DNA from: Strigamia acuminata
Taxonomy: Eukaryota
DNA length: 64,000 nucleotides
Reading direction: 5' to 3'
Assembly (NCBI GenBank): GCA_949358305.1
Contig: OX442314.1
Span: 9,052,001 to 9,116,000, forward strand
Shown in pieces: positions 6,779 through 40,764 of this stretch. The first letter of the stretch is position 1; every line of letters begins with the position of its first letter. The notes beneath the pieces are model-generated. The model was not told the DNA's origin and ran no database searches. It saw only the letters and a list, made by a program, of their open reading frames with translations. Made by a program: the position numbers and the translations under genes.

Positions 6779-6809
<31 letters not shown>

Positions 6810-7554: not shown

Positions 7555-7587
<33 letters not shown>

Positions 7588-9641: not shown

Positions 9642-10008
9642 CGGGCGTTGAGTTTGGAGGTGATCGACGAGCCCGTGGTTGGAATGGATGGAATTCACGT
9701 GATTGTACAGGACGGAAATGGGGATGTGGAACGAGTGAATGTTCACAATATCGATCAGAATATTTCGGTTCATGATAAGCTGGGTTATGGGTGCAAGATT
9801 GCTATTCGTAACCCTTATTTCAAAATTACAACGGATGGGAAGCAAGCGATTCGTGTGGATGATGTTGAAAGTGTTGTTTTTGATGCCGGTCCAGATATGA
9901 GTCGTTGTCGCTACTGTGGAAAGACCGGTTCAGTATCGAAGTGTGGCAGATGTGACAGAGCCGCTTACTGCAGTAAACGATGCCAGGCGAATGATTGGAA
10001 GATTTTAA
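9642..10008 (+). pseudogene. MYND zinc-finger gene fragment, truncated at TTAA by the transposon end
   Basis: CRYC...KCGRC..AYCSKRCQANDWKIL lacks the final HxxxC ligands; sequence switches to repeat at 10009. Confidence 0.8.
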
Positions 10009-10869
10009 CCTTCGGAAGCGAGTGCACCCGCAAAATCCGCACTTTGGGAGTGACTATTCCTCGGATTCCGGCCGGACCAAACTCTTCCGGAAAATGTCCG
10101 GGGGAATGCTGAGAGTGCCGATAGACGACATTCGATTTTATGTCGTGGATTTTTGTGCGGTTTGCGCCGTGTTTATTATTCGTACGAGATTTGGTATTTT
10201 CGCAGGGTTGTTGTCGCGCGAGATTCATCGGGGTAAAGCGAGTTCATCAACGACCTCGCCGGTGAATGTTGCTAAAAATCTGTGCAAGTGTTGTCAAATA
10301 TTGCCGTGATTCGATGGAATTTTTGTCAGACATTGGGAAATTTTTTTTGACTTGTCCAACGCGCCAGTAAATCGAGCGTCCACACGCGCCCACATGCGTG
10401 AACAGTGCACTCGCCCTCCGCGCCCCGTCGGCGTAGGCGCCGGCCGTCCCCCCTTTCTCTCTCTCTCTCTCTCTTCCGCCCGGGAATCGCCCTTCCGCCC
10501 GTCACCGAATTTTGTCAATATCTGATAAATTTCCACAGAATTGCAGCGACATTGTACGGGATATTTCTGCCCGATTTGACGGACTTATGTAAAACATTGC
10601 TGAAATTCCGTGGAAATTTATAAAATATTGACAAAGGTTGGTGACCGACCCACGGCGCGTTGCGGCGCGGTCGGAGCACGCGACCCGATCCCCCCCTCCC
10701 CCCGTCCCCAAAAAACCACGCCTCGAGGAACCCCGAGGTTCGGTTTCCGACCGGGTCGCCTCTTGATCCGACTCGGGGCGCGTCACGGCGCGGTCGGAGG
10801 ACGGCCCTCGTCCCCAAAAACCACACTCCGGGTCACGTGGTCTCGCACTCGACTTTTTCAGTTTTCCCG

Positions 10870-11625
10870 TTTTCGGCCCGTTACGGCCAAGGACCGTAAC
10901 GGGTCGAAAACGGGCCGCAACGGGTCGAAAACGGCCGCAACGGGTCGAAAACGGCCCGCACGGGCCGTTAACGGGCCGCCGACGGTCCCGTCACAATCCC
11001 GTAACGGCTCGCACGGGCCGTTAACGGGCCGCCGACGGTCCCGTCACGATCCCGTAACGGCTCGCACGGGCCGTTAACGGGCCGCCGACGGTTCCGTAAC
11101 TATCCCGTAACGGCCCGCACGGGCCGTTAACGGGCCGCCGACGGTCCCGTCACGACCCCGTAACGGCCCGTACGACCTCATGCGGGCCGTTAACGGCCCG
11201 TTAACGGCGTAAAACCAAAAACAGGATTCGAGATTAATGTCTATGAATGTTGTACGCGTTTTCATGTACGTGTTGTCGGTTGTTGATTTTTTCGATTTAC
11301 ACCGTCACGGCCCGTTAACGGCCCGTTAACGGCCCGTTAACGGCCCGTCAACGGCCCGCATGGGGTCGTACGGGCCGTTAACGGGCCGCCGACGGTCCCG
11401 TCACGATCCCGTAACGGCCCGCACGGGCCGTTAACGGGCCGCCGACGGTCCCGTCACGGTCCCGTAACGGCCTTCGTTCCCGGACTTCGGCTCGCCGACG
11501 GCCCGTGCGACCTCATGCGGGCCGCTAACGGGCCGTCAACGGGCCGTTAACGGGCCGTCAACGGGCCGTTAACGGCCCGTTTTCGACCCGCTACGGCCCG
11601 TCACGGCCTGTTGGCCGTGCGACCC
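10870..11625. repeat. GTTAAC palindromic satellite block 1 (1 core)
   Basis: 10-11-bp subunits ACGG(C/G)CCGTTA in ~53-bp higher-order unit; core at 11209. Confidence 0.95.
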
Positions 11626-12319
11626 GAAAACGGGAAAACTGAAAGAGTCGAGTGCGAGACCACGTGACTCGGAGTGTGGTTTTTGGGGACGAGGGCCGTC
11701 CTCCGGCCGCGCCGCGACGCGCCGCGGGTCGGACAAGAAACGACCCGGTCGGAAACCGAACCTCAGTGTCCAATCGGGCAGAAATTGTGCGGAAGTTTAA
11801 CCAAAAATGGCCAAAAGTCGGTGCAAGTTTTGCACGCAACAAACGTCCGATGTGACAGTGCCCATGCGGATTGGACGTGCATGTGGGCGCGTGTGGGAGC
11901 TCGATTTACTGGCGCGTTGGACGAGTTTTAAAAAAATTCTCCAAAATCTGACAAAACTTGCAACGATTTTTAACGACATTTAATTGATTTCCACAGATTT
12001 TAAGAACACTGTTTTACAGAAGCCCGTCCAATCGGGCAGAAATGTCTCGCAAAATATTGCTGAAATTCCGTGGAAATTTATCAAAAATCGTTGCCAGTTT
12101 TGTCAGATTTTGGAGAATTTTTTTAGAACTCGTCCAACGCGCCAGTAAATCACGCGCCCACGTGCGTGGACGATGCGCACGTCCAACCCGCCAAGGCTCG
12201 CCCCTACGACCGTCGGCGGGAGCCCCGGCCGTCCTCTCTCTCCCTCTCGGCCGCCAATGCTCGCCCCTCCGCCCGGGACTCGCCCCGCCGCCAGTCACCG
12301 ACTTTTGGCAATTTCCTTG

Positions 12320-14230
12320 CAAACAGCAACGATAATGATGTATTTATTGATAATTGTTTTTGCATCGGACATGTGTTTAATTTTAGTGGTTCCTCGACTC
12401 AGTTTGTGCGGTTCTTGCGCGTCGTGCGCACGTTCAACACGCGCCCACGCGAGTATATCGCGTGGACTCTCGTCTCTCTCGTCAGTCTCGATGTTTTGTA
12501 TGATTTTATTTTGCTAATTGTTTTGAGCGCGTGCAATTTCAATTGTTGCACCACACACGCATTTTCTATTGTACACCAGTGTTCCTATGTCGAATAAATT
12601 AGACTTGTTTTTAATTTCTCTGTCGCCATTGTTTGAATTCACTGCGCTGCACGAGAGCTTCAATTTATGAGTTGGACCGCTTTTTATACAAATTATGTGG
12701 GAATTTTGCTCGATTCATGCGCGGTTCTTTCTTAAGCGTCGGGCAAGTTTTGTCAGATATTGCAAAAAGTACATCGCGCGTGCACGGGCGTGCGTGGACG
12801 GTGCCCGCGTCCAACGCTCATCGGCGTCCAACTCCTTGTCTACAAAGAAGGTCGGGGTTTCGGGCATATCCTTTGCCACGACCGCGTCTTGGTTCTCGCC
12901 TTCGGTGGTCATCTCCAAGGCGGGAATCAGCCCGGATTTCAACGGGGTGCTGTCGGTCAGAAAGGGAACGGTCGGTGTTGTTGGGGAGATGTTGGAGCAG
13001 TACTAAACGTCATGTTTTGTTCACGTGAAAATGAAATGTGCGTTTAAAAAGCCTATCGTGCTGCCGGGACGTTTATTAATTTTCCCAGTTTGACATAAGC
13101 GAGCGCGCACATGGCGACGGCAATGTCTTTTGTCACCTTTAAATTCCTTTTTGGTTTCAACTATGTAAGTTACCTTGTTTTATTAAAATAACTGTTAGTT
13201 TTGTATATTTGCTAGTTGGTTCATGTTTGGTGCGTTAGATATAAACACCAAACCACCGTATTTATGTTTTCTGAGACGTACGACGCGAGTCGCGCTCGTA
13301 CGCCGACTTCGACACATCGGTAAACCGCCAGCGTGCACCATTTTTCTCGTGCTCACTCAGACGTGCGCATTACACGCGATATTGCGCACGAACGCGCACA
13401 CCGCCTCCGCGACACACATCACACACCCGTTTAAACGAGTCTCGGCGCCTATTTGACCCCAGTGTTTACTTTTTAAAATTGTGGTGTGTTTTCAAAGTTC
13501 TTAATTTGTTCAAAAACAAACAAAATGGATATCTGTTGATTTTTAAATGATTTTGTCGATTTAGTTTTTTGCTGGTTTTTAATCGATTTGTCTGTATTTT
13601 TAATCAATTCGAATGATTGACACCATTCTGTGCTTTACTCGTATTCAAGATGGCGTCGCAAACTCAAGGTCGAATTCCGCTGAATTCATTTATTGCGACT
13701 GTTTGCGCTCCATACGTGCGAAAAGGATTATGGGAATAATCCTCAATGCAGGCCATTTTGGTGTTAAATGAGCGAGGAAGGCAGGACATAAGGAAAATTG
13801 GTGAAATGTAAAAAAAAATGCTAAACAATCAACATTTAAATAAAGATCAATATTTCTGGCTCGAAATGCATATATCGGCAATTTCGGGATATTTTCGGGA
13901 CGAAATTGACTCGTTCGGAACACAGGGGAGGGACTCCCACATTCCCCATGCGTCGGCGCGTGTGTTTACGAAATACCAAATCCAGGTTTTCATACAACCC
14001 CACGTTATTTTCGGGTCAAGAGTTTTTTTATGCGCTGCCGCGCGCAATCCCCGGGTTGATGAGTTTCGCGGAATCCGACGAGCGAGTGCGATCGTGTCAT
14101 ACCGCTTCTTCTCGTGGCAAAGTAGACACCTTAATTAAACTGGCTGTTGGCTTTTTTTTTTAAACAAAGTACGAGTCTTTAAGTTGAACGGTTGTTGAGA
14201 TACACGTAGTAATGTGGACTCGCGACGCGT
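12320..14230. other. Complex cargo segment inside array, duplicated at 37175-39085
   Basis: Identical ORF set at offset 24855; diverged inverted partial copy at ~34130-34540. Confidence 0.85.
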
Positions 14231-14509
14231 TGCAACGTGGTCGGAGAACGGCCCACTTCCCTCCCCCCGACCAGGTTGTCTTTCTCTCTCTTGTCCGACC
14301 CACGGCGCGTCGCGGCGCGGCCGGAGGACGTCTCTTTCCCCTCCCCCAGTCCCAAAAACCACACCTTGAGGAACCCCGAGGTTCGGTTTCCGACCGGGCC
14401 GTTTCTCGCCCGACCCACGACGCGCCGCGGCGCGGCCGGAGGACGGCCCTCGTCCCCAAAAACCACACTCCGGGTCACGTGGTCTCGCACTCGACTTTTT
14501 CAGTTTTCC

Positions 14510-16350
14510 CGTTTTCGGCCCGTTACGGCCAAGGACCGTAACGGGTCGAAAACGGGCCGCAACGGGTCGAAAACGGCCGCAACGGGTCGAAAACGGCCCG
14601 CACGGGCCGTTAACGGGCCGCCGACGGTCCCGTCACAATCCCGTAACGGCTCGCACGGGCCGTTAACGGGCCGCCGACGGTCCCGTCACGATCCCGTAAC
14701 GGCTCGCACGGGCCGTTAACGGGCCGCCGACGGTTCCGTAACTATCCCGTAACGGCCCGCACGGGCCGTTAACGGGCCGCCGACGGTCCCGTCACGACCC
14801 CGTAACGGCCCGTACGACCTCATGCGGGCCGTTAACGGGCCGTTAACGGGCCGTTAACGGCCCGTTAACGGCGTAAAACCAAAAACAGGATTCGAGATTA
14901 ATGTCTATGAATGTTGTACGCGTTTTCATGTACGTGTTGTCGGTTGTTGATTTTTTCGATTTACACCGTCACGGCCCGTTAACGGCCCGTTAACGGCCCG
15001 TTAACGGCCCGTCAACGGCCCGCATGGGGTCGCACGGGCCGTTAACGGGCCGCTGACGGTCCCGTCACGATCCCGTCACGGCCTTCGTTCCCGGACTTCG
15101 GCTCGCCGACGGCCCGTACGACCTCACGCGGGCCGTTAACGGGCCGTTAACGGCCCGTTAACGGCCCGTTAACGGCGTAAAACCAAAAACAGGATTCGAG
15201 ATTAATGTCTATGAATGTTGTACGCGTTTTCATGTACGTGTTGTCGGTTGTTGATTTTTTCGATTCACGCCGTAACGGCCCGTTAACGGCCCGTTAACGG
15301 CCCGTCAACGGCCCGTCAACGGCCCGCAACGGCCCGCACGGGCCGTTAACGGGCCGTCGACGATCCCGTCACGATCCCGCAACGGCCCGCACGGGCCGTT
15401 AACGGGCCGCTGACGGTCCCGTCACGATCCCGCAACGGCCCGCACGGGCCGTTAACGGGCCGTCGACGATCCCGTCACGATCCCGCAACGGCCCGCACGG
15501 GCCGTTAACGGGCCGCTGACGGTCCCGTCACGATCCCGCAACGGCCCGCACGGGCCGTTAACGGGCCGTCGACGGTCCCGTCACGATCCCGCAACGGCCC
15601 GCACGGGCCGTTAACGGCCCGTTAACGGCCCGTTAACGGCCCGTTAACGGGGCAAAACCGAAAACAGGATTCGAGATTAATGTCTATGAATGTTGTACGC
15701 GTTTTCACGTACGTGTTGTCGGTTGTTGATTTTTTCGATTCACGCCGTAACGGCCCGTTAACGGCCCGTTAACGGCCCGTCAACGGCCCGTCAACGGCCC
15801 GCAACGGCCCGCACGGGCCGTTAACGGGCCGTCGACGATCCCGTCACGATCCCGCAACGGCCCGCACGGGCCGTTAACGGGCCGCTGACGGTCCCGTCAC
15901 GATCCCGTCACGGCCTTCGTTCCCGGACTTCGGCTCGCCGACGGCCCGTACGACCTCACGCGGGCCGTTAACGGGCCGTTAACGGGCCGTTAACGGCCCG
16001 TTAACGGCCCGTTAACGGCGTAAAACCAAAAACAGGATTCGAGATTAATGTCTATGAATGTTGTACGCGTTTTCACGTACGTGTTGTCGGTTGTTGATTT
16101 TTTCGATTTACGCCGTTAACGGCCCGTTAACGGCCCGTTAACGGCCCGTCAACGGCCCGCATGGAGTCGTACGGGCCGTTAACGGGCCGCCGACGGTCCC
16201 GTCACGGTCCCGTCACGGCGCGTGCGGGCCGTTAACGGGCCGCCAACGGTCCCGTCACGATCCCGTCACGGCCCGTGCGGGCCGTTAACGGGCCGCCGAC
16301 GGTCCCGTCACGATCCCGTAACGGCCCGTTACGGCCAAGGGCCGTAACGG
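14510..16350. repeat. Satellite block 2 (4 cores)
   Basis: Cores at ~14873, 15177, 15651, 16020. Confidence 0.95.
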
Positions 16351-18209
16351 GATAACTGAGAGAGTCGGGTGCGAGACCACGTGACCCGGAGTGTGGTTTT
16401 TGGGGGCGAGGGCCGTCCTCCGACCGCGCCGTGACGCGCCCCGGGTCGGATCAAGAGGCGACCCGGTCGGAAACCGAACCTCGGGGTTCCTCGGGGCGTG
16501 GTTTTTTGGGGACGGGGGGAGGGGGGGATTGGGTCGCGTGCTCCGACCGCGCCGCAACGCGCCGTGGGTCGGTCACCAACCTTTGTCAATATTTTATAAA
16601 TTTCCACGGAATTTCAACAATGTTTTACATAAGTCCGTCAAATCGGGCAGAAATATCCCGTACAATGTCGCTGCAATTCTGTGGAAATTTATCAGATATT
16701 GACAAAATTCGGTGACGGGCGGAAGGGCGATTCCCGGGCGGAAGAGAGAGAGAGAGAGAGAAAGGGGGGACGGCCGGCGCCTACGCCGACGGGGCGCGGA
16801 GGGCGAGTGCACTGTTCACGCATGTGGGCGCGTGTGGACGCTCGATTTACTGGCGCGTTGGACAAGTCAAAAAAAATTTCCCAATGTCTGACAAAAATTC
16901 CATCGAATCACGGCAATATTTGACAACACTTGCACAGATTTTTAGCAACATTCACCGGCGAGGTCGTTGATGAACTCGCTTTACCCCGATGAATCTCGCG
17001 CGACAACAACCCTGCGAAAATACCAAATCTCGTACGAATAATAAACACGGCGCAAACCGCACAAAAATCCACGACATAAAATCGAATGTCGTCTATCGGC
17101 ACTCTCAGCATTCCCCCGGACATTTTCCGGAAGAGTTTGGTCCGGCCGGAATCCGAGGAATAGTCACTCCCAAAGTGCGGATTTTGCGGGTGCACTCGCT
17201 TCCGAAGGATAGGCAAAGCAGGCGTGCGGACGCGACGCCCGGACGCGGCCGGACGGGGACCAGTCGGCGCTTAACCTTGGGGTATGTGTGCGGATTTTGT
17301 CGGGGGCGAAAGGGTCCCGCTTTTTAACATTACGGCGGCCTATACGTTGTTTCGTTGATCGCGACTGTGATGCGGAATTTGCGGATGTTGTTTTGGCCGA
17401 GTAGTTCGTGCGACCGAGCGCGTTTTGTTCGTTGCTTTTCGGTGTTCGGTGGGTTTTGTGACCGGTCAAGGGTTTCGCTAAAACGTGGTTTTTGTGACGG
17501 GAGGGAGGGGGGATCGGTTCATGTGCTCCGAACGCGCCGCGACGCGCCGTGACTTGGGCCAAAAACGACCCGGTCGGAAACCGGGTCCCGGGCTTCGTCG
17601 AGGCGTGGTTTTTGAGAACGGGGGGAGGGGGGGATCGGGTCGCGTGCTCCGAAAGCGCCGCGACGCGCCGTGACTTGGGCCAAAAACGACCCGGTCGGAA
17701 ACCGGGTCCCGGGCTTCGTCGAGGCGTGGTCCCGATCGGGACAAACTCTTCCGGAAAATGTCCGGTGGAATGTTGAGAGTGTCGATGGACGACGTTCGAG
17801 TTTATATCGTAAGTAAGTAAGTATCTGACAAAACTTGCACAGAATTTTGTCAACATTTGATAAATTTCCACAGAATTTAACGTTGTTTTGCTAAAACCTG
17901 CGGAAACGTGTCTAGTCGGGCAGAAACGTCTCGTAAAATGTTGCTGAAATTCCGTGGAAATTTGTCAAAAATTGACAAAAGTTGGTGACCGACCCACATC
18001 GCGTTGCGGCGCGGTTGGAGCACGCGACCCGATCCCCCCCTCCCCCCGTCCCCAAAAAACCACGCCTCGAGGAACCCCGAGGTTCGGTTTCCGACCGGGT
18101 CGCCTCTTGATCCGACCCGGGGCGCGTCACGGCGCGGTCGGAGGACGGCCCTCGTCCCCAAAAACCACACTCCGGGTCACGTGGTCTCGCACTCGACTTT
18201 TTCAGTTTT

Positions 18210-19075
18210 CCCGTTTTCGGCCCGTTACGGCCAAGGACCGTAACGGGTCGAAAACGGCCGCAACGGGTCGAAAACGGCCGCAACGGGTCGAAAACGGCCC
18301 GCACGGGCCGTTAACGGGCCGCCGACGGTCCCGTCACAATCCCGTAACGGCTCGCACGGGCCGTTAACGGGCCGCCGACGGTCCCGTCACGATCCCGTAA
18401 CGGCTCGCACGGGCCGTTAACGGGCCGCCGACGGTTCCGTAACTATCCCGTAACGGCCCGCACGGGCCGTTAACGGGCCGCCGACGGTCCCGTCACGACC
18501 CCGTAACGGCCCGTACGACCTCATGCGGGCCGTTAACGGGCCGTTAACGGGCCGTTAACGGCCCGTTAACGGCGTAAAACCAAAAACAGGATTCGAGATT
18601 AATGTCTATGAATGTTGTATGCGTTTTCATGTACGTGTTGTCGGTTGTTGATTTTTTCGATTTACACCGTCACGGCCCGTTAACGGCCCGTTAACGGCCC
18701 GTTAACGGCCCGTCAACGGCCCGCATGGGGTCGCACGGGCCGTTAACGGGCCGCCGACGGTCCCGTCACGATCCCGTAACGGCCCGCACGGGCCGTTAAC
18801 GGGCCGCCGACGGTCCCGTCACGATTCCGTAACGGCTCGCACGGGCCGTTAACGGGCCGCCGACGGTCCCGTCACGATCCCGTAACGGCTCGCACGGGCC
18901 GTTAACGGGCCGCCGACGGTCCCGTCACGGTCCCGTAACGGCCTTCGTTCCCGGACTTCGGCTCGCCGACGGCCCGTGCGACCTCATGCGGGCCGCTAAC
19001 GGGCCGTCAACGGGCCGTTAACGGCCCGTTTTCGACCCGCTACGGCCCGTCACGGCCTGTTGGCCGTGCGACCCG
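18210..19075. repeat. Satellite block 3 (1 core)
   Basis: Core at ~18574. Confidence 0.95.
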
Positions 19076-19469
19076 TGACTCGGAGTGTGGTTTTTGGGGA
19101 CGAGGGCCGTCCTCCGGCCGCGCCGCGACGCGCCGCGGGTCGGACAAGAAACGACCCGGTCGGAAACCGAACCTCAGTGTCCAATCGGGCAGAAATTGTG
19201 CGGAAGTTTAACCAAAAATGGCCAAAAGTCGGTGCAAGTTTTGCACGCAACAAACGTCCGATGTGACAGTGCCCATGCGGGTTGGACGTGCATGTGGGCG
19301 CGTGTGGGCGCTCGATTTACCGGCCCGTTGGACGAGTTAAACCAAAATTTCCCAATATCTTGCATAAATTTAAAGAAGATTTGACAGATTTCCAGATTTT
19401 AAGCGATGTTTTACATAAGTCCGTCCCATTGCTGAAATTCCGTGAAAATTTGTCAAAAATTGACAAAAG

Positions 19470-21505
19470 TCTGTGCAAATTTTGTCAGAAATAGGAAACA
19501 AAAAATTTAAAATTCGTCCAACGCGCCAGTAAATCGAGCGCGCCCATGCGTGGACAGTGCGCCGGCGGGAGCCCCGGCCGTCCTCTCTCTCTCTCTCTCT
19601 CGGCCGCCAAGGCTCGCCCCTCCGCCCGTCGGCGGGAGCCCCGACCGTCCCCCCTCTCTCTTTCGGCCGCCAAAGGATCGCCCCTCCGCTCGTCACAGAT
19701 TTTTGTCAATATTTGATGAATTTCAACAGATTTTCAGCAATATTTTACAGGACATTTCTGCTCTTTTGGATACATTTTCAAAGGTTTTATTGCTAAAATT
19801 CTGGGGAAATTTATCAAAAATTGACAAAAAATCGATGCAAGTTTTGTCAGAAACTGATAAAATCTTCTTAAACTCGTCCAACGCGCCGGCGAGTGCACAT
19901 GCGGGGACAGTGGGCACGTCCAGCCCGCGTGCACACTGTCAGATCGGGCGGTTTCGGGCACAGTTTGATCCGGGCAAATATCTAGCAAAACTTGCACCGA
20001 TTTTTTGTCAATTTTAGACAAATTTCAGCGATATTTTACGAGACATTTCTGCTCGATTGGACACATTTCCAGGGGTTTTTTGTAAAACATTGATAAAATT
20101 CCGTGGAAATTTATCAAATATTGGCAAAATTCGGTGCTAATTTTGTCAAAAATTAGGAAAAAAAAATTTTCAAAACTTGTCCAACGTGCCGGTAAATCGA
20201 GCGCCCACATGCCTAGATAGTGCACGCCCAACCCGCCAAGGCTCGCCCCTCCGCCCGTTGGCGGGAGCCCCGGCCGTCCCCTCTCTCTCTCTTTCTCTCT
20301 CTCTCTCGGGCGCCCGGAGCTCGCCCCTCCGCCCGTCACCGACTTTTGACACAATTTTTGATGAAATTCAACGGAATTTTAGCAACGTTTTACAAAAAAC
20401 CTGTGGAAATGTGTCCAACCGGGCAGAAATGTGTCGTAAAATGTTGCCGAAATTCTGTGAAAATTTGTCACAAATTGCCAAAAGTCGGTGCAAATTTTGT
20501 CAGAAATAGGAAACAAAAAATTTAAAATTCGTCCAACGCGCCAGTAAATCGAGCGCGCCCATGCGTGGACAGTGCGCCGGCGGGAGCCCCGGCCGTCCTC
20601 TCTCTCTCTCTCTCTCGGCCGCCAAGGCTCGCCCCTCCGCCCGTCGGCGGGAGCCCCGACCGTCCCCCCTCTCTCTTTCGGCCGCCAAAGGATCGCCCCT
20701 CCGCTCGTCACAGATTTTTGTCAATATTTGATGAATTTCAACAGATTTTCAGCAATATTTTACAGGACATTTCTGCTCTTTTGGATACATTTTCAAAGGT
20801 TTTATTGCTAAAATTCTGGGGAAATTTATCAAATATTGACAAAAAATCGATGCAAGTTTTGTCAGAAATTGATAAAATCTTCTTAAACTCGTCCAACGCG
20901 CCGGCGAGTGCACATGCGGGGACAGTGGGCACGTCCAGCCCGCGTGCACACTGTCAGATCGGGCGGTTTCGGGCACAGTTTGATCCGGGCAAATATCTAG
21001 CAAAACTTGCACCGATTTTTTGTCAATTTTAGACAAATTTCAGCGATATTTTACGAGACATTTCTGCTCGATTGGACACATTTCCAGGGGTTTTTTGTAA
21101 AACATTGATAAAATTCCGTGGAAATTTATCAAATATTGGCAAAATTCGGTGCTAATTTTGTCAAAAATTAGGAAAAAAAAATTTTCAAAACTTGTCCAAC
21201 GTGCCGGTAAATCGAGCGCCCACATGCCTAGATAGTGCACGCCCAACCCGCCAAGGCTCGCCCCTCCGCCCGTTGGCGGGAGCCCCGGCCGTCCCCTCTC
21301 TCTCTCTTTCTCTCTCTCTCTCGGGCGCCCGGAGCTCGCCCCTCCGCCCGTCACCGACTTTTGACACAATTTTTGATGAAATTCAACGGAATTTTAGCAA
21401 CGTTTTACAAAAAACCTGTGGAAATGTGTCCAACCGGGCAGAAATGTGTCGTAAAATGTTGCCGAAATTCTGTGAAAATTTGTCACAAATTGCCAAAAGT
21501 CGGTG
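19470..21505 (+). repeat. 1015-bp tandem repeat, 2 copies
   Basis: Sequence and ORF track repeat at offset 1015. Confidence 0.95.
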
Positions 21506-21904
21506 CAAGTATTGCTAGATTTGGGCGCATCAAACTGTGCCGAGATCTGACAGTGTCCACGCGGTTTTGAAGCGCCCACTGTCGACGCACGTGGGCGCTC
21601 AATTTACCGGCGCGTTGGACGAGTTTTGAAAAAAGTTTTTTCCTAATTTCTGACAAAACTTGCACCGAATTTTGTCAATATGTGATAAATTTCCATGGAT
21701 TTTAAGCAATGTTTTACAGAAGTCCGTCCCATCGGGCAGAAACGTCTCGTAAAATGTCGCTGAAATTCCGTGAAAATCTGTCAAAAATTGACAAAAGTTG
21801 GTGACCGACCCGCGGCGCGTCACGGCGCGGTCGGAGGACGGCCCTCGTCCCCAAAAACCACACTCCGGGTCACGTGGTCTCGCACTCGACTTTTTCAGTT
21901 TTCC

Positions 21905-22800
21905 CGTTTTCGGCCCGTTACGGCCAAGGACCGTAACGGGTCGAAAACGGGCCGCAACGGGTCGAAAACGGCCGCAACGGGTCGAAAACGGCCGCAACGG
22001 GTCGAAAACGGCCCGCACGGGCCGTTAACGGGCCGCCGACGGTCCCGTCACAATCCCGTAACGGCTCGCACGGGCCGTTAACGGGCCGCCGACGGTCCCG
22101 TCACGATCCCGTAACGGCTCGCACGGGCCGTTAACGGGCCGCCGACGGTTCCGTAACTATCCCGTAACGGCCCGCACGGGCCGTTAACGGGCCGCCGACG
22201 GTCCCGTCACGACCCCGTAACGGCCCGTACGACCTCATGCGGGCCGTTAACGGGCCGTTAACGGGCCGTTAACGGGCCGTTAACGGCCCGTTAACGGCGT
22301 AAAACCAAAAACAGGATTCGAGATTAATGTCTATGAATGTTGTACGCGTTTTCATGTACGTGTTGTCGGTTGTTGATTTTTTCGATTTACACCGTCACGG
22401 CCCGTTAACGGCCCGTTAACGGCCCGTTAACGGCCCGTCAACGGCCCGCATGGGGTCGCACGGGCCGTTAACGGGCCGCCGACGGTCCCGTCACGATCCC
22501 GTAACGGCCCGCACGGGCCGTTAACGGGCCGCCGACGGTCCCGTCACGATTCCGTAACGGCTCGCACGGGCCGTTAACGGGCCGCCGACGGTCCCGTCAC
22601 GATCCCGTAACGGCTCGCACGGGCCGTTAACGGGCCGCCGACGGTCCCGTCACGGTCCCGTAACGGCCTTCGTTCCCGGACTTCGGCTCGCCGACGGCCC
22701 GTGCGACCTCATGCGGGCCGCTAACGGGCCGTCAACGGGCCGTTAACGGCCCGTTTTCGACCCGCTACGGCCCGTCACGGCCTGTTGGCCGTGCGACCCG
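21905..22800. repeat. Satellite block 4 (1 core)
   Basis: Core at ~22299; part of 3725-bp higher-order duplication. Confidence 0.95.
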
Positions 22801-23194
22801 TGACTCGGAGTGTGGTTTTTGGGGACGAGGGCCGTCCTCCGGCCGCGCCGCGACGCGCCGCGGGTCGGACAAGAAACGACCCGGTCGGAAACCGAACCTC
22901 AGTGTCCAATCGGGCAGAAATTGTGCGGAAGTTTAACCAAAAATGGCCAAAAGTCGGTGCAAGTTTTGCACGCAACAAACGTCCGATGTGACAGTGCCCA
23001 TGCGGGTTGGACGTGCATGTGGGCGCGTGTGGGCGCTCGATTTACCGGCCCGTTGGACGAGTTAAACCAAAATTTCCCAATATCTTGCATAAATTTAAAG
23101 AAGATTTGACAGATTTCCAGATTTTAAGCGATGTTTTACATAAGTCCGTCCCATTGCTGAAATTCCGTGAAAATTTGTCAAAAATTGACAAAAG

Positions 23195-26245: not shown

Positions 26246-26644
26246 CAAGTATTGCTAGATTTGGGCGCATCAAACTGTGCCGAGATCTGACAGTGTCCAC
26301 GCGGTTTTGAAGCGCCCACTGTCGACGCACGTGGGCGCTCAATTTACCGGCGCGTTGGACGAGTTTTGAAAAAAGTTTTTTCCTAATTTCTGACAAAACT
26401 TGCACCGAATTTTGTCAATATGTGATAAATTTCCATGGATTTTAAGCAATGTTTTACAGAAGTCCGTCCCATCGGGCAGAAACGTCTCGTAAAATGTCGC
26501 TGAAATTCCGTGAAAATCTGTCAAAAATTGACAAAAGTTGGTGACCGACCCGCGGCGCGTCACGGCGCGGTCGGAGGACGGCCCTCGTCCCCAAAAACCA
26601 CACTCCGGGTCACGTGGTCTCGCACTCGACTTTTTCAGTTTTCC

Positions 26645-29630: not shown

Positions 29631-31499
29631 TAACTGAGAGAGTCGGGTGCGAGACCACGTGACCCGGAGTGTGGTTTTTGGGGGCGAGGGCCGTCCTCCG
29701 ACCGCGCCGTGACGCGCCCCGGGTCGGATCAAGAGGCGACCCGGTCGGAAACCGAACCTCGGGGTTCCTCGGGGCGTGGTTTTTTGGGGACGGGGGGAGG
29801 GGGGGATTGGGTCGCGTGCTCCGACCGCGCCGCAACGCGCCGTGGGTCGGTCACCAACCTTTGTCAATATTTTATAAATTTCCACGGAATTTCAACAATG
29901 TTTTACATAAGTCCGTCAAATCGGGCAGAAATATCCCGTACAATGTCGCTGCAATTCTGTGGAAATTTATCAGATATTGACAAAATTCGGTGACGGGCGG
30001 AAGGGCGATTCCCGGGCGGAAGAGAGAGAGAGAGAGAGAAAGGGGGGACGGCCGGCGCCTACGCCGACGGGGCGCGGAGGGCGAGTGCACTGTTCACGCA
30101 TGTGGGCGCGTGTGGACGCTCGATTTACTGGCGCGTTGGACAAGTCAAAAAAAATTTCCCAATGTCTGACAAAAATTCCATCGAATCACGGCAATATTTG
30201 ACAACACTTGCACAGATTTTTAGCAACATTCACCGGCGAGGTCGTTGATGAACTCGCTTTACCCCGATGAATCTCGCGCGACAACAACCCTGCGAAAATA
30301 CCAAATCTCGTACGAATAATAAACACGGCGCAAACCGCACAAAAATCCACGACATAAAATCGAATGTCGTCTATCGGCACTCTCAGCATTCCCCCGGACA
30401 TTTTCCGGAAGAGTTTGGTCCGGCCGGAATCCGAGGAATAGTCACTCCCAAAGTGCGGATTTTGCGGGTGCACTCGCTTCCGAAGGATAGGCAAAGCAGG
30501 CGTGCGGACGCGACGCCCGGACGCGGCCGGACGGGGACCAGTCGGCGCTTAACCTTGGGGTATGTGTGCGGATTTTGTCGGGGGCGAAAGGGTCCCGCTT
30601 TTTAACATTACGGCGGCCTATACGTTGTTTCGTTGATCGCGACTGTGATGCGGAATTTGCGGATGTTGTTTTGGCCGAGTAGTTCGTGCGACCGAGCGCG
30701 TTTTGTTCGTTGCTTTTCGGTGTTCGGTGGGTTTTGTGACCGGTCAAGGGTTTCGCTAAAACGTGGTTTTTGTGACGGGAGGGAGGGGGGATCGGTTCAT
30801 GTGCTCCGAACGCGCCGCGACGCGCCGTGACTTGGGCCAAAAACGACCCGGTCGGAAACCGGGTCCCGGGCTTCGTCGAGGCGTGGTTTTTGAGAACGGG
30901 GGGAGGGGGGGATCGGGTCGCGTGCTCCGAAAGCGCCGCGACGCGCCGTGACTTGGGCCAAAAACGACCCGGTCGGAAACCGGGTCCCGGGCTTCGTCGA
31001 GGCGTGGTCCCGATCGGGACAAACTCTTCCGGAAAATGTCCGGTGGAATGTTGAGAGTGTCGATGGACGACGTTCGAGTTTATATCGTAAGTAAGTAAGT
31101 ATCTGACAAAACTTGCACAGAATTTTGTCAACATTTGATAAATTTCCACAGAATTTAACGTTGTTTTGCTAAAACCTGCGGAAACGTGTCTAGTCGGGCA
31201 GAAACGTCTCGTAAAATGTTGCTGAAATTCCGTGGAAATTTGTCAAAAATTGACAAAAGTTGGTGACCGACCCACATCGCGTTGCGGCGCGGTCGGAGCA
31301 CGCGACCCGATCCCCCCCCCCCCCCCTCCCCCCGTCCCCAAAAAACCACGCCTCGAGGAACCCCGAGGTTCGGTTTCCGACCGGGTCGCCTCTTGATCCG
31401 ACTCGGGGCGCGTCACGGCGCGGTCGGAGGACGGCCCTCGCCCCCAAAAACCACACTCCGGGTCACGTGGTCTCGCACTCGACTTTTTCAGTTTTCCCG

Positions 31500-32310
31500 T
31501 TTTCGGCCCGTTACGGCCAAGGACCGTAACGGGTCGAAAACGGGCCGCAACGGGTCGAAAACGGCCGCAACGGGTCGAAAACGGCCCGCACGGGCCGTTA
31601 ACGGGCCGCCGACGGTCCCGTCACAATCCCGTAACGGCTCGCACGGGCCGTTAACGGGCCGCCGACGGTCCCGTCACGATCCCGTAACGGCTCGCACGGG
31701 CCGTTAACGGGCCGCCGACGGTTCCGTAACTATCCCGTAACGGCCCGCACGGGCCGTTAACGGGCCGCCGACGATCCCGTCACGACCCCGTAACGGCCCG
31801 TACGACCTCATGCGGGCCGTTAACGGGCCGTTAACGGGCCGTTAACGGCCCGTTAACGGCGTAAAACCAAAAACAGGATTCGAGATTAATGTCTATGAAT
31901 GTTGTACGCGTTTTCATGTACGTGTTGTCGGTTGTTGATTTTTTCGATTTACACCGTCACGGCCCGTTAACGGCCCGTTAACGGCCCGTTAACGGCCCGT
32001 TACGATCCCGTAACGGCCCGCACGGGCCGTTAACGGGCCGCCGACGGTCCCGTCACGATCCCGTAACGGCCCGCACGGGCCGTTAACGGGCCGCCGACGG
32101 TCCCGTCACGGTCCCGTAACGGCTCGCACGGGCCGTTAACGGGCCGCCGACGGTCCCGTCACGGTCCCGTAACGGCCTTCGTTCCCGGACTTCGGCTCGC
32201 CGACGGCCCGTGCGACCTCATGCGGGCCGCTAACGGGCCGTCAACGGGCCGTTAACGGCCCGTTTTCGACCCGCTACGGCCCGTCACGGCCTGTTGGCCG
32301 TGCGACCCGT
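31500..32310. repeat. Satellite block 6 (1 core)
   Basis: Core at ~31861. Confidence 0.95.
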
Positions 32311-35300
32311 GACTCGGAGTGTGGTTTTTGGGGACGAGGGCCGTCCTCCGGCCGCGCCGCGACGCGCCGCGGGTCGGACAAGAAACGACCCGGTCGGAAA
32401 CCGAACCTCAGTGTCCAATCGGGCAGAAATTGTGCGAAAGTTTAACCAAAAATGGCCAAAAGTCGGTGCAAGTTTTGCACGCAACAAACGTCCGATGTGA
32501 CAGTGCCCATGCGGGTTGGACGTGCATGTGGGCGCGTGTGGGCGCTCGATTTACCGGCCCGTTGGACGAGTTAAACCAAAATTTCCCAATATCTTGCATA
32601 AATTTAAAGAAGATTTGACAGATTTCCAGATTTTAAGCGATGTTTTACATAAGTCCGTCCCATTGCTGAAATTCCGTGAAAATTTGTCAAAAATTGACAA
32701 AAGTCTGTGCAAATTTAGTCAGAAATAGGAAACAAAAAATTTAAAATTCGTCCAACGCGCCAGTAAATCGAGCGCGCCCATGGACAGTGCGCCGGCGGGA
32801 GCCCCGGCCGTCCTCTCTCTCTCTCTCTCTCGGCCGCCAAGGCTCGCCCCTCCGCCCGTCGGCGGGAGCCCCGACCGTCCCCCCTCTCTCTTTCGGCCGC
32901 CAAAGGATCGCCCCTCCGCTCGTCACAGATTTTTGTCAATATTTGATGAATTTCAACAGATTTTCAGCAATATTTTACAGGACATTTCTGCTCTTTTGGA
33001 TACATTTTCAAAGGTTTTATTGCTAAAATTCTGGGGAAATTTATCAAATATTGACAAAAAATCGATGCAAGTTTTGTCAGAAATTGATAAAATCTTCTTA
33101 AACTCGTCCAACGCGCCGGCGAGTGCACATGCGGGGACAGTGGGCACGTCCAGCCCGCGTGCACACTGTCAGATCGGGCGGTTTCGGGCACAGTTTGATC
33201 CGGGCAAATATCTAGCAAAACTTGCACCGATTTTTTGTCAATTTTAGACAAATTTCAGCGATATTTTACGAGACATTTCTGCTCGATTGGACACATTTCC
33301 AGGGGTTTTTTGTAAAACATTGATAAAATTCCGTGGAAATTTATCAAATATTGGCAAAATTCGGTGCTAATTTTGTCAAAAATTAGGAAAAAAAAAATTT
33401 TCAAAACTTGTCCAACGTGCCGGTAAATCGAGCGCCCACATGCCTAGATAGTGCACGCCCAACCCGCCAAGGCTCGCCCCTCCGCCCGTCGGCGGGAGCC
33501 CCGGCCGTCCCCTCTCTCTCTCTTTCTCTCTCTCTCTCGGGCGCCCGGAGCTCGCCCCTCCGCCCGTCACCGACTTTTGACACAATTTTTGATGAAATTC
33601 AACGGAATTTTAGCAACGTTTTACAAAAAACCTGTGGAAATGTGTCCAACCGGGCAGAAATGTGTCGTAAAATGTTGCCGAAATTCTGTGAAAATTTGTC
33701 ACAAATTGCCAAAAGTCGGTGCAAGTATTGCTAGATTTGGGCGCATCAAACTGTGCCGAGATCTGACAGTGTCCACGCGGTTTTGAAGCGCCCACTGTCG
33801 ACGCACGTGGGCGCTCAATTTACCGGCGCGTTGGACGAGTTTTGAAAAAAGTTTTTTCCTAATTTCTGACAAAACTTGCACCGAATTTTGTCAATATGTG
33901 ATAAATTTCCATGGATTTTAAGCAATGTTTTACAGAAGTCCGTCCCATCGGGCAGAAATGTCTCGTAAAATGTCGCTGAAATTCTGTGGAAATTTGTTAA
34001 AAAATTCCCACAAGTCGGTGCAACTTTTGCACGCATCAAACTGTGCCCCGAGAGTCCACGCGTGTGCCCGATCTGACAGTGTCCACGCGGGTTGGACGTG
34101 CGCATGTGGGCGCGCGATTTACTGGCCTCCAACTCATCAATTAAAGCTCTCATGCAGCGCAACGAATCATCTGAAGAGCGCTAGTGAATTCAAAAAATGG
34201 CGACAGAAAAATTAAAAACACGTCTAATTTATTCGACTCAAGAACACGAACTAAATTGTCCAGATACTAGTCTACAATAGAAAATGCGGGAGTGCAACAA
34301 TTGAAATTGCACGCGCTCAAAACAATTAGCAAAATAAAATCATATAAAACATCGAGACTGACGTAACTAGAATCACACGATCGTCGACGAGAGTCCACGC
34401 ATGTGCGTGCGCGATGTACTCGTGTGGCCACGTGTTAAACGTGGGCACGACGCGCAAGAACCGTACACACCGAGTCAAGGAACCACTAAAAAGACAAAAC
34501 GAATTAAACACATGTCTAATGCAAAAACAATTAACAATAAAACTGTGCCCGAAACCGCCCGATCTGACAATGTCCACGCGGGTTGGACGTGTAAAACATC
34601 GCTTAAAATCTGTGGAAATCAGTCAAATGTTCTTAAAAATCGGTGCAAGTTATGCAAAATATTGGGAAAATTTTGTTTAACTCGTCCAACGCGCCGGTAA
34701 ATCGAGCGCCCACACGTGCCCACATGCGTGAACAGTGCACTCGCCCTCTCGCCCCGTCGGCGTAGGCGCCGGCCGTCCGCCCTCTCTCTCTCTCTCTCTC
34801 TTCCGCTCGGGAATCGCCCTTCCGCCCGTCACCGAATTTTGTCAATATCTGATAAATTTCTACAGAATTGCAGCAACATTATACGGGATATTTCTGCCCT
34901 TTTGGATGGGGCTTCTGTAAAACATTGCTTAAAATCTGTGTAAATTTATTAAATGTCGTTAAAAATCGTTGCAAGTTTTGTCAGATTTTGGAGAATTTTT
35001 TTAGAACTCGTCCAACGCGCCAGTAAATCACGCGCCCACGTGCGTGGACAGTGCGCCCCGCGTGGACACTGTCAGGTCGGGCACACTCGTGGACTCTCGG
35101 GGCACACGGTTTGATGCGTCCAAAAAAATTGCACCGACTTTTGACAATTTGTGATAAATTTCCAAGTAATTTCAGCAATATTTTGCGAGACATTTCTGCC
35201 CGATTGGATACATTTCCACAGGTTTTTGTAAAACATTGCTAAAATTCGGTGGAAATCTATCAAATGTTGCCACAATTCGGTGCAAGTTTTGCGAGATTTG

Positions 35301-35699
35301 CTCGCATCAAACTGTGCCCGAAAATGCCCGACTTGACAGTGTCCACGCGGGTTGGACGCGCCCAGCACTGTCCAAGCACGTGGGCGCGTGTGGGCGCTCG
35401 ATTTATCGGCGCGTTGGACTAGTTTTAAAAAAATTTTCCCAATTTCTGACAAAATTCGCACCGAATTTTTGCAATTTTTGATAAATTAACACAGAATTTC
35501 AGCAATGTTTTAAACAAGTCCGTCCAATCGGGCAGAAATGTCTCGTAAAATGTTGCTGAAATTCCGTGAAAATCTGTCAAAAATTGACAAAAGTTGGTGA
35601 CCGACCCGCGGCGCGTCACGGCGCGGTCGGAGGACGGCCCTCGTCCCCAAAAACCACACTCCGGGTCACGTGGTCTCGCACTCGACTTTTTCAGTTTTC

Positions 35700-36480
35700 C
35701 CGTTTTCGGCCCGTTACGGCCAAGGACCGTAACGGGTCGAAAACGGGCCGCAACGGGTCGAAAACGGCCGCAACGGGTCGAAAACGGCCCGCACGGGCCG
35801 TTAACGGGCCGCCGACGGTCCCGTCACAATCCCGTAACGGCTCGCACGGGCCGTTAACGGGCCGCCGACGGTCCCGTCACGATCCCGTAACGGCTCGCAC
35901 GGGCCGTTAACGGGCCGCCGACGGTTCCGTAACTATCCCGTAACGGCCCGCACGGGCCGTTAACGGGCCGCCGACGGTCCCGTCACGACCCCGTAACGGC
36001 CCGTACGACCTCATGCGGGCCGTTAACGGGCCGTTAACGGGCCGTTAACGGCCCGTTAACGGCGTAAAACCAAAAACAGGATTCGAGATTAATGTCTATG
36101 AATGTTGTACGCGTTTTCATGTACGTGTTGTCGGTTGTTGATTTTTTCGATTTACACCGTCACGGCCCGTTAACGGCCCGTTAACGGCCCGTTAACGGCC
36201 CGTCAACGGCCCGCATGGGGTCGTACGGGCCGTTAACGGGCCGCCGACGGTCCCGTCACGATCCCGTAACGGCCCGCACGGGCCGTTAACGGGCCGCCGA
36301 CGGTCCCGTCACGGTCCCGTAACGGCCTTCGTTCCCGGACTTCGGCTCGCCGACGGCCCGTGCGACCTCATGCGGGCCGCTAACGGGCCGTCAACGGGCC
36401 GTTAACGGGCCGTCAACGGGCCGTTAACGGCCCGTTTTCGACCCGCTACGGCCCGTCACGGCCTGTTGGCCGTGCGACCC
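35700..36480. repeat. Satellite block 7 (1 core)
   Basis: Core at ~36064. Confidence 0.95.
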
Positions 36481-39364
36481 GAAAACGGGAAAACTGAAAG
36501 AGTCGAGTGCGAGACCACGTGACTCGGAGTGTGGTTTTTGGGGACGAGGGCCGTCCTCCGGCCGCGCCGCGACGCGCCGCGGGTCGGACAAGAAACGACC
36601 CGGTCGGAAACCGAACCTCAGTGTCCAATCGGGCAGAAATTGTGCGGAAGTTTAACCAAAAATGGCCAAAAGTCGGTGCAAGTTTTGCACGCAACAAACG
36701 TCCGATGTGACAGTGCCCATGCGGATTGGACGTGCATGTGGGCGCGTGTGGGAGCTCGATTTACTGGCGCGTTGGACGAGTTTTAAAAAAATTCTCCAAA
36801 ATCTGACAAAACTTGCAACGATTTTTAACGACATTTAATTGATTTCCACAGATTTTAAGAACACTGTTTTACAGAAGCCCGTCCAATCGGGCAGAAATGT
36901 CTCGCAAAATATTGCTGAAATTCCGTGGAAATTTATCAAAAATCGTTGCCAGTTTTGTCAGATTTTGGAGAATTTTTTTAGAACTCGTCCAACGCGCCAG
37001 TAAATCACGCGCCCACGTGCGTGGACGATGCGCACGTCCAACCCGCCAAGGCTCGCCCCTACGACCGTCGGCGGGAGCCCCGGCCGTCCTCTCTCTCCCT
37101 CTCGGCCGCCAATGCTCGCCCCTCCGCCCGGGACTCGCCCCGCCGCCAGTCACCGACTTTTGGCAATTTCCTTGCAAACAGCAACGATAATGATGTATTT
37201 ATTGATAATTGTTTTTGCATCGGACATGTGTTTAATTTTAGTGGTTCCTCGACTCAGTTTGTGCGGTTCTTGCGCGTCGTGCGCACGTTCAACACGCGCC
37301 CACGCGAGTATATCGCGTGGACTCTCGTCTCTCTCGTCAGTCTCGATGTTTTGTATGATTTTATTTTGCTAATTGTTTTGAGCGCGTGCAATTTCAATTG
37401 TTGCACCACACACGCATTTTCTATTGTACACCAGTGTTCCTATGTCGAATAAATTAGACTTGTTTTTAATTTCTCTGTCGCCATTGTTTGAATTCACTGC
37501 GCTGCACGAGAGCTTCAATTTATGAGTTGGACCGCTTTTTATACAAATTATGTGGGAATTTTGCTCGATTCATGCGCGGTTCTTTCTTAAGCGTCGGGCA
37601 AGTTTTGTCAGATATTGCAAAAAGTACATCGCGCGTGCACGGGCGTGCGTGGACGGTGCCCGCGTCCAACGCTCATCGGCGTCCAACTCCTTGTCTACAA
37701 AGAAGGTCGGGGTTTCGGGCATATCCTTTGCCACGACCGCGTCTTGGTTCTCGCCTTCGGTGGTCATCTCCAAGGCGGGAATCAGCCCGGATTTCAACGG
37801 GGTGCTGTCGGTCAGAAAGGGAACGGTCGGTGTTGTTGGGGAGATGTTGGAGCAGTACTAAACGTCATGTTTTGTTCACGTGAAAATGAAATGTGCGTTT
37901 AAAAAGCCTATCGTGCTGCCGGGACGTTTATTAATTTTCCCAGTTTGACATAAGCGAGCGCGCACATGGCGACGGCAATGTCTTTTGTCACCTTTAAATT
38001 CCTTTTTGGTTTCAACTATGTAAGTTACCTTGTTTTATTAAAATAACTGTTAGTTTTGTATATTTGCTAGTTGGTTCATGTTTGGTGCGTTAGATATAAA
38101 CACCAAACCACCGTATTTATGTTTTCTGAGACGTACGACGCGAGTCGCGCTCGTACGCCGACTTCGACACATCGGTAAACCGCCAGCGTGCACCATTTTT
38201 CTCGTGCTCACTCAGACGTGCGCATTACACGCGATATTGCGCACGAACGCGCACACCGCCTCCGCGACACACATCACACACCCGTTTAAACGAGTCTCGG
38301 CGCCTATTTGACCCCAGTGTTTACTTTTTAAAATTGTGGTGTGTTTTCAAAGTTCTTAATTTGTTCAAAAACAAACAAAATGGATATCTGTTGATTTTTA
38401 AATGATTTTGTCGATTTAGTTTTTTGCTGGTTTTTAATCGATTTGTCTGTATTTTTAATCAATTCGAATGATTGACACCATTCTGTGCTTTACTCGTATT
38501 CAAGATGGCGTCGCAAACTCAAGGTCGAATTCCGCTGAATTCATTTATTGCGACTGTTTGCGCTCCATACGTGCGAAAAGGATTATGGGAATAATCCTCA
38601 ATGCAGGCCATTTTGGTGTTAAATGAGCGAGGAAGGCAGGACATAAGGAAAATTGGTGAAATGTAAAAAAAAATGCTAAACAATCAACATTTAAATAAAG
38701 ATCAATATTTCTGGCTCGAAATGCATATATCGGCAATTTCGGGATATTTTCGGGACGAAATTGACTCGTTCGGAACACAGGGGAGGGACTCCCACATTCC
38801 CCATGCGTCGGCGCGTGTGTTTACGAAATACCAAATCCAGGTTTTCATACAACCCCACGTTATTTTCGGGTCAAGAGTTTTTTTATGCGCTGCCGCGCGC
38901 AATCCCCGGGTTGATGAGTTTCGCGGAATCCGACGAGCGAGTGCGATCGTGTCATACCGCTTCTTCTCGTGGCAAAGTAGACACCTTAATTAAACTGGCT
39001 GTTGGCTTTTTTTTTTAAACAAAGTACGAGTCTTTAAGTTGAACGGTTGTTGAGATACACGTAGTAATGTGGACTCGCGACGCGTTGCAACGTGGTCGGA
39101 GAACGGCCCACTTCCCTCCCCCCGACCAGGTTGTCTTTCTCTCTCTTGTCCGACCCACGGCGCGTCGCGGCGCGGCCGGAGGACGTCTCTTTCCCCTCCC
39201 CCAGTCCCAAAAACCACACCTTGAGGAACCCCGAGGTTCGGTTTCCGACCGGGCCGTTTCTCGCCCGACCCACGACGCGCCGCGGCGCGGCCGGAGGACG
39301 GCCCTCGTCCCCAAAAACCACACTCCGGGTCACGTGGTCTCGCACTCGACTTTTTCAGTTTTCC

Positions 39365-39925
39365 CGTTTTCGGCCCGTTACGGCCAAGGACCGTAACGGG
39401 TCGAAAACGGGCCGCAACGGGTCGAAAACGGCCGCAACGGGTCGAAAACGACCCGCACGGGCCGTTAACGGGCCGCCGACGGTCCCGTCACGATCCCGTA
39501 ACGGCCCGCACGGGCCGTTAACGGGCCGCCGACGGGACCGTCACGATCCCGTAACGGCCTTCGTTCCCGGACTTCGGCTCGCCGACGGCCCGTACGACCT
39601 CATGCGGGCCGTTAACGGGCCGTTAACGACCCGTTAACGGCGTAAAACCAAAAACAGGATTCGAGATTAATGTCTATGAATGTTGTACGCGTTTTCATGT
39701 ACGTGTTGTCGGTTGTTGATTTTTTCGATTTACACCGTCACGGCCCGTTAACGGCCCGTTAACGGCCCGTTAACGGCCCGTCAACGGCCCGCATGGGGTC
39801 GTACGGGCCGTTAACGGGCCGCCGACGGTTCCGTCACGATCCCGTAACGGCCCGCACGGGCCGTTAACGGGCCGCCGACGGTCCCGTCACGATCCCGTAA
39901 CGGCCCGTCATGATCCCGTAACGGG
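39365..39925. repeat. Satellite block 8 (1 core)
   Basis: Core at ~39642. Confidence 0.95.
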
Positions 39926-40764
39926 AAAACTGAGAGAGTCGGGTGCGAGACCACGTGACCCGGAGTGTGGTTTTTGGGGGCGAGGGCCGTCCTCCGACCG
40001 CGCCGTGACGCGCCCCGGGTCGGATCAAGAGGCGACCCGGTCGGAAACCGAACTTCGGGGTTCCTCGAGGCGTGGTTTTTTGGGGACGGGGGGAGGGGGG
40101 GATCGGGTCGCGTGCTCCGACCGCGCCGCAACGCGCCGTGGGTCGGTCACCAACCTTTGTCAATATTTTATAAATTTCCACGGAATTTCAGCAATGTTTT
40201 ACATAAGTCCGTCAAATCGGGCAGAAATATCCCGTACAATGTCGCTGCAATTCTGTGGAAATTTATCAGATATTGACAAAATTCGGTGACGGGCGGAAGA
40301 GAGAGAGAGAGAGAGAGGGGGGACGGCCGGCGCCTACGCCGACGGGGCGGGAGGGCGAGTGCACTGTTCACGCATGTGGGCGCGTGTGGACGCTCGATTT
40401 ACTGGCGCGTTGGACAAGTCAAAAAAAATTTCCCAATGTCTGACAAAAATTCCATCGAATCACGGCAATATTTGACAACACTTGCACAGATTTTTAGCAA
40501 CATTCATCGGCGAGGTCGTTGATGAACTCGCTTTACCTCGATGAATCTCGCGCGACAACAACCCTGCGAAAATACCAAATCTCGTACGAATAATAAACAC
40601 GGCGCAAACCGCACAAAAACCCACGACATAAAATCGAATGTCGTCTATCGGCACTCTCAGCATTCCCCCGGACATTTTCCGGAAGAGTTTGGCCCTGCCG
40701 GAATCCGAAGAATAGTCACTCCCAAAGTGCGGATTTTGCGGGTGCACTCGCTTCCGAAGGTTAA

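Follow-up and report, generated by a model that had tools for sequence, protein, structure and literature searches.

A probable patchwork of satellite-filled foldback units with piggyBac-type ends in the genome of Strigamia acuminata

Statements on published systems refer to the portions of the cited accounts that were available. In piggyBac-like elements ATAG and ATAA are rare targets (PMC5381638), and about 10% of the targets of Pokey differ from TTAA (PMC3849761). The array described here occupies 30.7 kb of the 64-kb stretch of DNA that was analysed (the window). It resembles both the piggyBac-like elements and MITEs (PMC5381638) and Pokey/mPok (PMC3849761) in its TTAA targets with rare ATAA and ATAG, in its terminal CC, and in its unlike ends with a common subterminal motif. 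Pokey likewise has a length-variable repetitive non-coding region and tandem insertions (PMC3849761). A difference is that the interior here is satellite, and no rRNA family was matched in Rfam, where the search gave 0 matches altogether. The accessible part of PMC5381638 gives a norm for piggyBac of 12-19 bp (14 +/- 2 bp) for the TIRs and 1.7-8.5 kb for the element. Unlike this norm, the arms here are identical over 591 bp and extend over about 1 kb in all, and the units measure 7.2, 10.2 and 13.2 kb without a transposase, so that both the arms between paired ends of one type (A-A) and the unit sizes fall outside it.

In structure the array agrees with the foldback class (Galileo, Tetris), as it has long, modular, repetitive inverted arms and is non-coding. 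Galileo, Newton and Kepler have long internally repetitive inverted arms, non-coding copies and chimeras, formed by ectopic recombination, with mismatched arms and flanks (PMC2775673), and the array appears similar to them in these respects. Galileo belongs to the P superfamily and makes a 7-bp GTAGTAC duplication, its copies being described within insertions of <5 kb in the available part of the account (PMC2775673); the array ends are flanked by TTAA or ATAG and not by a duplication of the 7-bp GTAGTAC type. Tetris of Drosophila virilis is likewise non-autonomous, modular and rearranged, and its internal tandem repeats expand to kilobase arrays (PMC4079207). Unlike Tetris, the present array combines ends of the TTAA-CC type with several repeat tiers (11/53 bp, ~300 bp and 1,015 bp).

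The TTAA target and a MITE interior turned into a tandem-repeat family are also shared with the Xmix/Xstir T2-MITEs and Kolobok/KolobokP (PMC6004289, PMC9587614), and the likeness to Kolobok extends to full-length elements of 7-14 kb and to multimers formed by unequal crossover (PMC6004289, PMC9587614). The termini of Kolobok and its T2-MITEs are, however, 5'-RR..YY-3' (PMC9587614), whereas those of the array are CC..GG, a high-depth contig ending at the terminal GG, and the array has no long terminal direct repeats. Teratorn is a large piggyBac-related unit with long inverted repeats and with internal TIRs (PMC6431247), and the cichlid centroids are ~15-kb units, rich in satellite and palindromes, with a decayed piggyBac region (PMC13652916). 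In contrast to both, the array holds no viral genes, transposase remnant or evidence of a centromere; the herpesvirus genes and transposase expected between the ends of a Teratorn were not found between its ends. Among viral contigs there were 0 matches for the end pattern and 0 for the satellite-spacer pattern, so that a virus-derived or Teratorn-like origin lacks support.

Foldbacks with internal satellites are known among transposons of the P and Mutator groups and among others without assignment, and Kolobok includes satellite carriers that target TTAA. No piggyBac-ended foldback satellite carrier was found in the literature as judged by titles and abstract openings, a scope outside which most subscription papers and Repbase lie. 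If a piggyBac transposase is the partner of the array, this would be a natural example in which piggyBac ends, perhaps symmetric ones, flank 7-13 kb of palindromic satellite, and in which ectopic recombination within a piggyBac family gives rise to rearrangements, which is of relevance to the origin of satellites and to vector design.

Architecture of the array

The features of the array and of its immediate flanks are as follows.

9442..9641, unstranded: scaffold gap of 200 N
9642..10004, plus strand: left flank, with a MYND-finger gene of which the 5' part is present (positions 1-33 of the 39 in profile PF01753, E 7e-8)
10005..10008, unstranded: TTAA targeted by the left end; CCTTCGGAAG follows at 10009
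10009..17208, unstranded: sub-element E1, 7.2 kb, with end A on both sides; 591 bp perfectly inverted, arms of ~1.13 kb at 90%
10009..10268, plus strand: end type A (CCTTCGGAAG...), high-copy and homogeneous; the 12-mer common with end C lies at 10031-10042
10875..11595, unstranded: first of 8 satellite blocks, palindromic 11/53-bp units whose core is GTTAAC, together with an AT-rich spacer of 91 bp
12340..14290, unstranded: cargo, unique, 1,951 bp, no recognisable protein; identical copy at 37195-39145 (100%)
near 14395, 18219, 21912, 26652, 31505, 35708 and 39250: starts of the other satellite blocks
17209..17270, unstranded: 62-bp spacer separating an A end from a C end, beginning with ATAG (a non-canonical target); copy at 30487-30548
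17271..17483, plus strand: TTAA with end type C (TTAA followed by CCTTGGGG); copy at 30549-30761
17275..30486, plus strand: sub-element E2, 13.2 kb, from C end to A end, without cargo
30553..40760, plus strand: sub-element E3, 10.2 kb, from C end to A end
40761..40764, unstranded: TTAA target of the right end, in a gypsy pol tail, preceded by an inverted CCTTCGGAAG copy that ends at 40760
40765..41497, minus strand: right flank, C-terminal part of a gypsy integrase, belonging to the gypsy with pol at 55476-59723 and split by a nested gypsy
41498-55519: nested gypsy, 14 kb, with identical 672-bp LTRs (41498-42169 and 54848-55519) and a GTTG duplication

A preliminary description of this DNA had pictured one element with two ends. 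The precise outer TTAA junctions that it reported are both present, with TTAA abutting CCTTCGGAAG at 10005-10008 and at 40761-40764, and its inverted arms of ~870 bp were recovered in the self-comparison of the window as an inverted match of 867 columns at 96.0% (10005-10871 with 40764-39920). The satellites, 1-kb repeats and cargo that it saw in the interior correspond to the 11/53-bp satellite, to repeats of 1,015 bp and to a 1,951-bp segment present twice. The outer ends of the two-ended picture thus stand, but the CCTTCGGAAG end occurs four times rather than twice (at 10009, 17208, 30486 and 40760), and there are pairs that match more closely than the outer arms do. The left A end is free of differences from the internal ends at 17208 and 30486 in its first 591 bp, and differs from each at 9 positions over 860 bp; against the outer right end, the same 860 bp contain 12 mismatches and 4 gap openings, 6 of the mismatches falling within the first 254 bp. 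The outer arms are therefore the least alike pair of A ends and not the matched pair that a single insertion would have. No match between the array and the remaining window was found in the self-comparison of the 64 kb.

The internal A ends are inverted and run into ATAG, and 62 bases past each of them begins a C end. By neighbour, two of the four A ends abut TTAA and two ATAG, the latter two representing one duplicated event. Ends A and C agree at only 6 of their first 7 bases and have a 12-mer in common, in opposite orientation, a length that was reached in 1 of 3000 shuffles. The published end rule of piggyBac, the terminal motif C[CAT][CAT][TGA][TAG][TGA] (PMC5381638, in the part available), is matched by end C at 6/6 and by end A at 5/6 positions, and both ends were taken to carry the motif. 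Positions 70-138 of end A recur as a 69-bp copy (90% identical) ~470 bp into each C end (17742-17810 and 31020-31088), which shows that sequence has been exchanged between the two end regions. A special hairpin structure of the ends was considered and found no support (fold z -0.7 and +0.4 against shuffles); among the four pieces folded, the satellite alone folds beyond shuffles (z -3.9). The 19 terminal bases gave 3 matches in metagenomes, the longest of 24 bp and without useful extension, and these were taken as chance.

From its sequence, the array can be read as E1, spacer, E2, spacer, E3. The module order in E1 is end-R-G-satellite-G'-R-cargo-G-satellite-G'-R'-end, where the R modules measure ~300 bp and occur in both orientations, and every satellite block of the array sits between inverted GC-rich G modules. 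E2 contains the 1,015-bp higher-order repeat units in tandem (19429-21514 and 23154-26254) and the longest satellite block of the array. Positions 36038-39450 of E3 are identical to 11183-14595 of E1, and the terminal ~480 bp of E3 carry private differences. Exact direct repeats of 3,413, 2,888 and 2,125 bp link E1, E2 and E3. The unit sizes are those of this one assembly, because the contigs of the sequencing runs discussed below are short-read contigs and among the pieces shown none spans a whole unit.

By the block rule of this analysis the satellite comprises 8 blocks and 9,446 bp in total. GTTAAC occurs 191 times in the array and 8 times outside it in the 64-kb window, where blastn gave no satellite match outside the array. 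The satellite holds 206 of the 304 TTAA sites. That this TTAA-rich satellite acts as a sink for self-insertion was rejected, since all 6 ends that the window contains lie outside it.

No transposase or other protein family was recognised in the array (0 credible Pfam matches in 18 read-through frames over 10009-21900 and 33600-35700), in agreement with the earlier report that a transposase is missing. The frames covered the non-redundant parts, and the remainder of the array is made up of copies of these; two weak Pfam matches had E values of 0.028 and 0.066. A partner transposase was found neither in these frames nor, outside the array, among 8 open frames and 10 proteins of the window. The cargo, of which a diverged inverted fragment lies at 34177-34541, was considered as a gene and rejected: its 95-aa frame (12718-13002, minus strand) was poorly recognised in the Atlas, at a score of 0.75, and no frame of the cargo gave a credible Pfam match.

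Target sites and abundance of the ends

On the left, the insertion cuts inside the MYND finger, at position 33 of the 39-position profile. The gene is one of a multi-copy family, of which several diverged paralogs are present in the runs. The fragment gave 0 matches among 220 candidates, and its nearest Atlas clusters are mostly fungal, which is noted as a lead only.

The left junction region is contained in three of five public runs (X1, X2 and X3; one organism, two studies), and its share in X4 and X5, from other organisms, is 0.00; the source sample of the window may itself be one of the runs. The comparison on the left side used 9642-10440. A MYND allele without the element shows 0 differences over 9907-10008 and then continues with 175 (X1) or 29 (X2) letters unlike the element. 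As these contigs are exact up to 10008 and unlike the element from there, the left allele exists without the insertion. The MYND paralogs in X3 also run past the junction point with letters unlike the element. On the right, contigs without the element align from exactly 40761, with a single TTAA, in 3/3 runs, and the letters upstream of 40761 are in all three runs neither those of the element nor those of the MYND flank. These uninterrupted gypsy contigs show the original sequence before the right TTAA, and their source may be further members of the gypsy family instead of the locus in the window.

At both outer junctions, therefore, a TTAA insertion is matched by an empty site with one TTAA, as expected for piggyBac. 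The two flanks do not, in contrast, come from one empty site, as they would for a single insertion: a MYND gene lies to the left and gypsy pol to the right, and their uninterrupted continuations differ. For the right flank, 8 of the 24 X1 records were compared and none of them had the 175-letter length of the MYND continuation in X1; motifs of the missing flank continuations do not occur next to the array in the window. Each outer TTAA comes from a locus of its own, and the two do not form a duplicated target. The mismatched flanks, together with the differing uninterrupted continuations, indicate that two independent insertions supplied the two outer ends.

The depth of the runs rises steeply at the terminal CC. 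In the bins of 9966-10046 it goes from 167 to 30,857 in X1, from 1,076 to 99,029 in X2 and from 433 to 23,198 in X3. Long unbranched terminal contigs have depths of 8,439 (X1, 1 difference) and 15,392 (X3, 0 differences), compared with ~20 (X1) and ~100 (X3) for the flank contigs. Contig depth is not itself a copy number; if the flank contigs are single-copy, the end is estimated at ~400 (X1) or ~150 (X3) copies. High-depth contigs (7,000 in X1, 14,516 in X3) stop exactly at 40760, the terminal G, which fixes the element end at CC/GG. Among the loose ends listed, other flanks after end A were ATAA in X1 and, in X3, TTAA (two contigs) and ATAG at a diverged junction, all observed flank targets keeping the central TA. 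The A-end/ATAG junction of the window was itself found in X2 and X3. The computed end depth running into TTAA is ~6,300 in X1 (supportive), ~2,700 in X3 (partial) and negative in X2 (uninformative).

Of the TTAA flanks at many loci and the empty sites that the preliminary description had proposed to look for, the runs show several further flanks (TTAA, ATAA and ATAG) and uninterrupted target sites. Its assignment to a piggyBac-type family is also borne out as far as the ends are concerned, which are real, very abundant and TTAA-directed; non-autonomous piggyBac is the assignment that fits best, Kolobok being excluded by the terminal CC. Judged from these sequence data, the array belongs to a foldback family that is real, non-autonomous and present in high copy, and whose ends are of the piggyBac type.

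Origin of the joined halves

The 30.7 kb had been taken for one unusually large element, which is not supported at this locus, given that the flanks come from two loci and that internal ends divide the array into units of 7-13 kb. We consider it probable that the array is a patchwork of three gene-less foldback units of 7-13 kb, with outer ends in two unrelated target sites, and that recombination within the genome joined it from separate copies of an abundant family, the probable mover of which is a piggyBac transposase with its gene elsewhere. Outer arms that differ, beside left and internal arms that are identical, are the criterion by which a chimera is recognised in Galileo (PMC2775673, in the part available), and the exact direct repeats of 3,413, 2,888 and 2,125 bp are candidate substrates for the recombination.

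Such a patchwork may have arisen from an autonomous piggyBac-type ancestor with two unlike ends (A and C, with the common subterminal 12-mer) that gave rise to non-coding derivatives. Their interiors would have grown by slippage and unequal exchange among the palindromic satellite and the ~300-bp modules, and one end may have been copied onto the opposite side to yield A-A foldbacks like E1. Copies would then have inserted at TTAA, rarely at ATAA or ATAG, by a transposase acting in trans, the MYND gene and the gypsy element being among the targets. Ectopic recombination between the near-identical interiors of separate copies could have joined a MYND-side half to a gypsy-side half, the DNA between them being removed or displaced, and unequal crossing-over may have duplicated the internal A-spacer-C junction. 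The piggyBac of T. ni normally does not move symmetric ends, according to the available part of 10.1101/2022.09.26.509586, and as it needs unlike ends, E1 may not move as an A-A unit. A bolder and rather unlikely version is that a piggyBac transposase accepting symmetric ends moves composite foldbacks of 7-30 kb, filled with satellite, at hundreds of sites, spreading the satellite and driving rearrangements. If so, the family would be a piggyBac counterpart of Galileo and the Ising TE, and its natural cargo would greatly exceed the sizes known from non-viral piggyBac elements.

The halves could also have been joined by the assembler and not in the genome. The family would then be real, and the assembly would have crossed from a MYND copy to a gypsy copy via near-identical interiors, with internal segments perhaps duplicated. 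Mis-joins are common near contig starts, and this contig begins merely 363 bp left of the left junction, beside the 200-N gap; kilobase repeats in the array are 100% identical in a family estimated at hundreds of copies, and neither outer junction is bridged by the short-read contig pieces shown. The longest exact repeat in the array is, however, 3.4 kb, which is below the typical length of long reads. X2 and X3 contain the internal A-end/ATAG junction, the adjoining nested gypsy is cleanly assembled, and the private variants of the right outer end together with the base precision of both junctions argue that each half is real. We therefore regard a mis-join as possible, if doubtful.

The reading as a patchwork also has to be weighed against a single large composite (A end, internal A-spacer-C junctions, A end) that is mobile as a whole and owes its mismatched flanks to aberrant one-ended or intramolecular transposition with deletion of adjacent DNA. 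This would fit the precise TTAA-CC junctions on both outer sides, and the internal A-spacer junction, being common to other samples and present in a diverged version, may belong permanently to a composite family; transposition of hybrid elements and with reversed ends (PMC2775673) and the internal TIRs of Teratorn (PMC6431247) are described in the available parts of the literature. Yet the outer arms are the pair of A ends with the least similarity, a second copy of such size was not seen, and published piggyBac-like elements measure 1.7-8.5 kb (PMC5381638, in the part available), which makes the composite improbable in our view. Still less credence is given to a mover other than piggyBac, either another TTAA-targeting transposase or, at present, mainly recombination in satellite arrays. 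Its case consists of the TTAA target common to Kolobok, of arms far longer than the 14 +/- 2 bp of piggyBac TIRs (PMC5381638) and of ends without a demonstrated link to a transposase. Against it, Kolobok ends begin with 5'-RR (PMC9587614) and those of the array with 5'-CC, and the exact uninterrupted alleles at both TTAA sites, together with several distinct flanks, point to recent cut-and-paste insertion. Spread by satellite recombination is further opposed by the 11 loose-end rows, in which no common high-depth continuation follows TTAA, unlike in a tandem array.

Neighbouring features of the window

Directly left of the scaffold gap lies the intron-free 3' part of a thymidine kinase gene (9058-9441, minus strand; PF00265, E 2e-38), whose relatives, among them animal, viral and unnamed proteins, reach no more than 63% identity. 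Positions 1-9000 of the window hold several short genes that contain introns, encode acidic or coiled-coil proteins and gave no credible Pfam match, a 161-bp tandem repeat (7870-8319) and a duplication (2723-3167 and 4567-5035, 85%).

To the right of the array, the nested gypsy sits in the integrase of the older gypsy and has an extra open frame of 790 aa (44051-46423, minus strand) without a Pfam match. The pol proteins of both gypsy elements contain long proline-rich stretches between RNase H and integrase, and a perfect 20-bp tandem array of 14 copies (63061-63344) is located upstream of the gag of the older gypsy.
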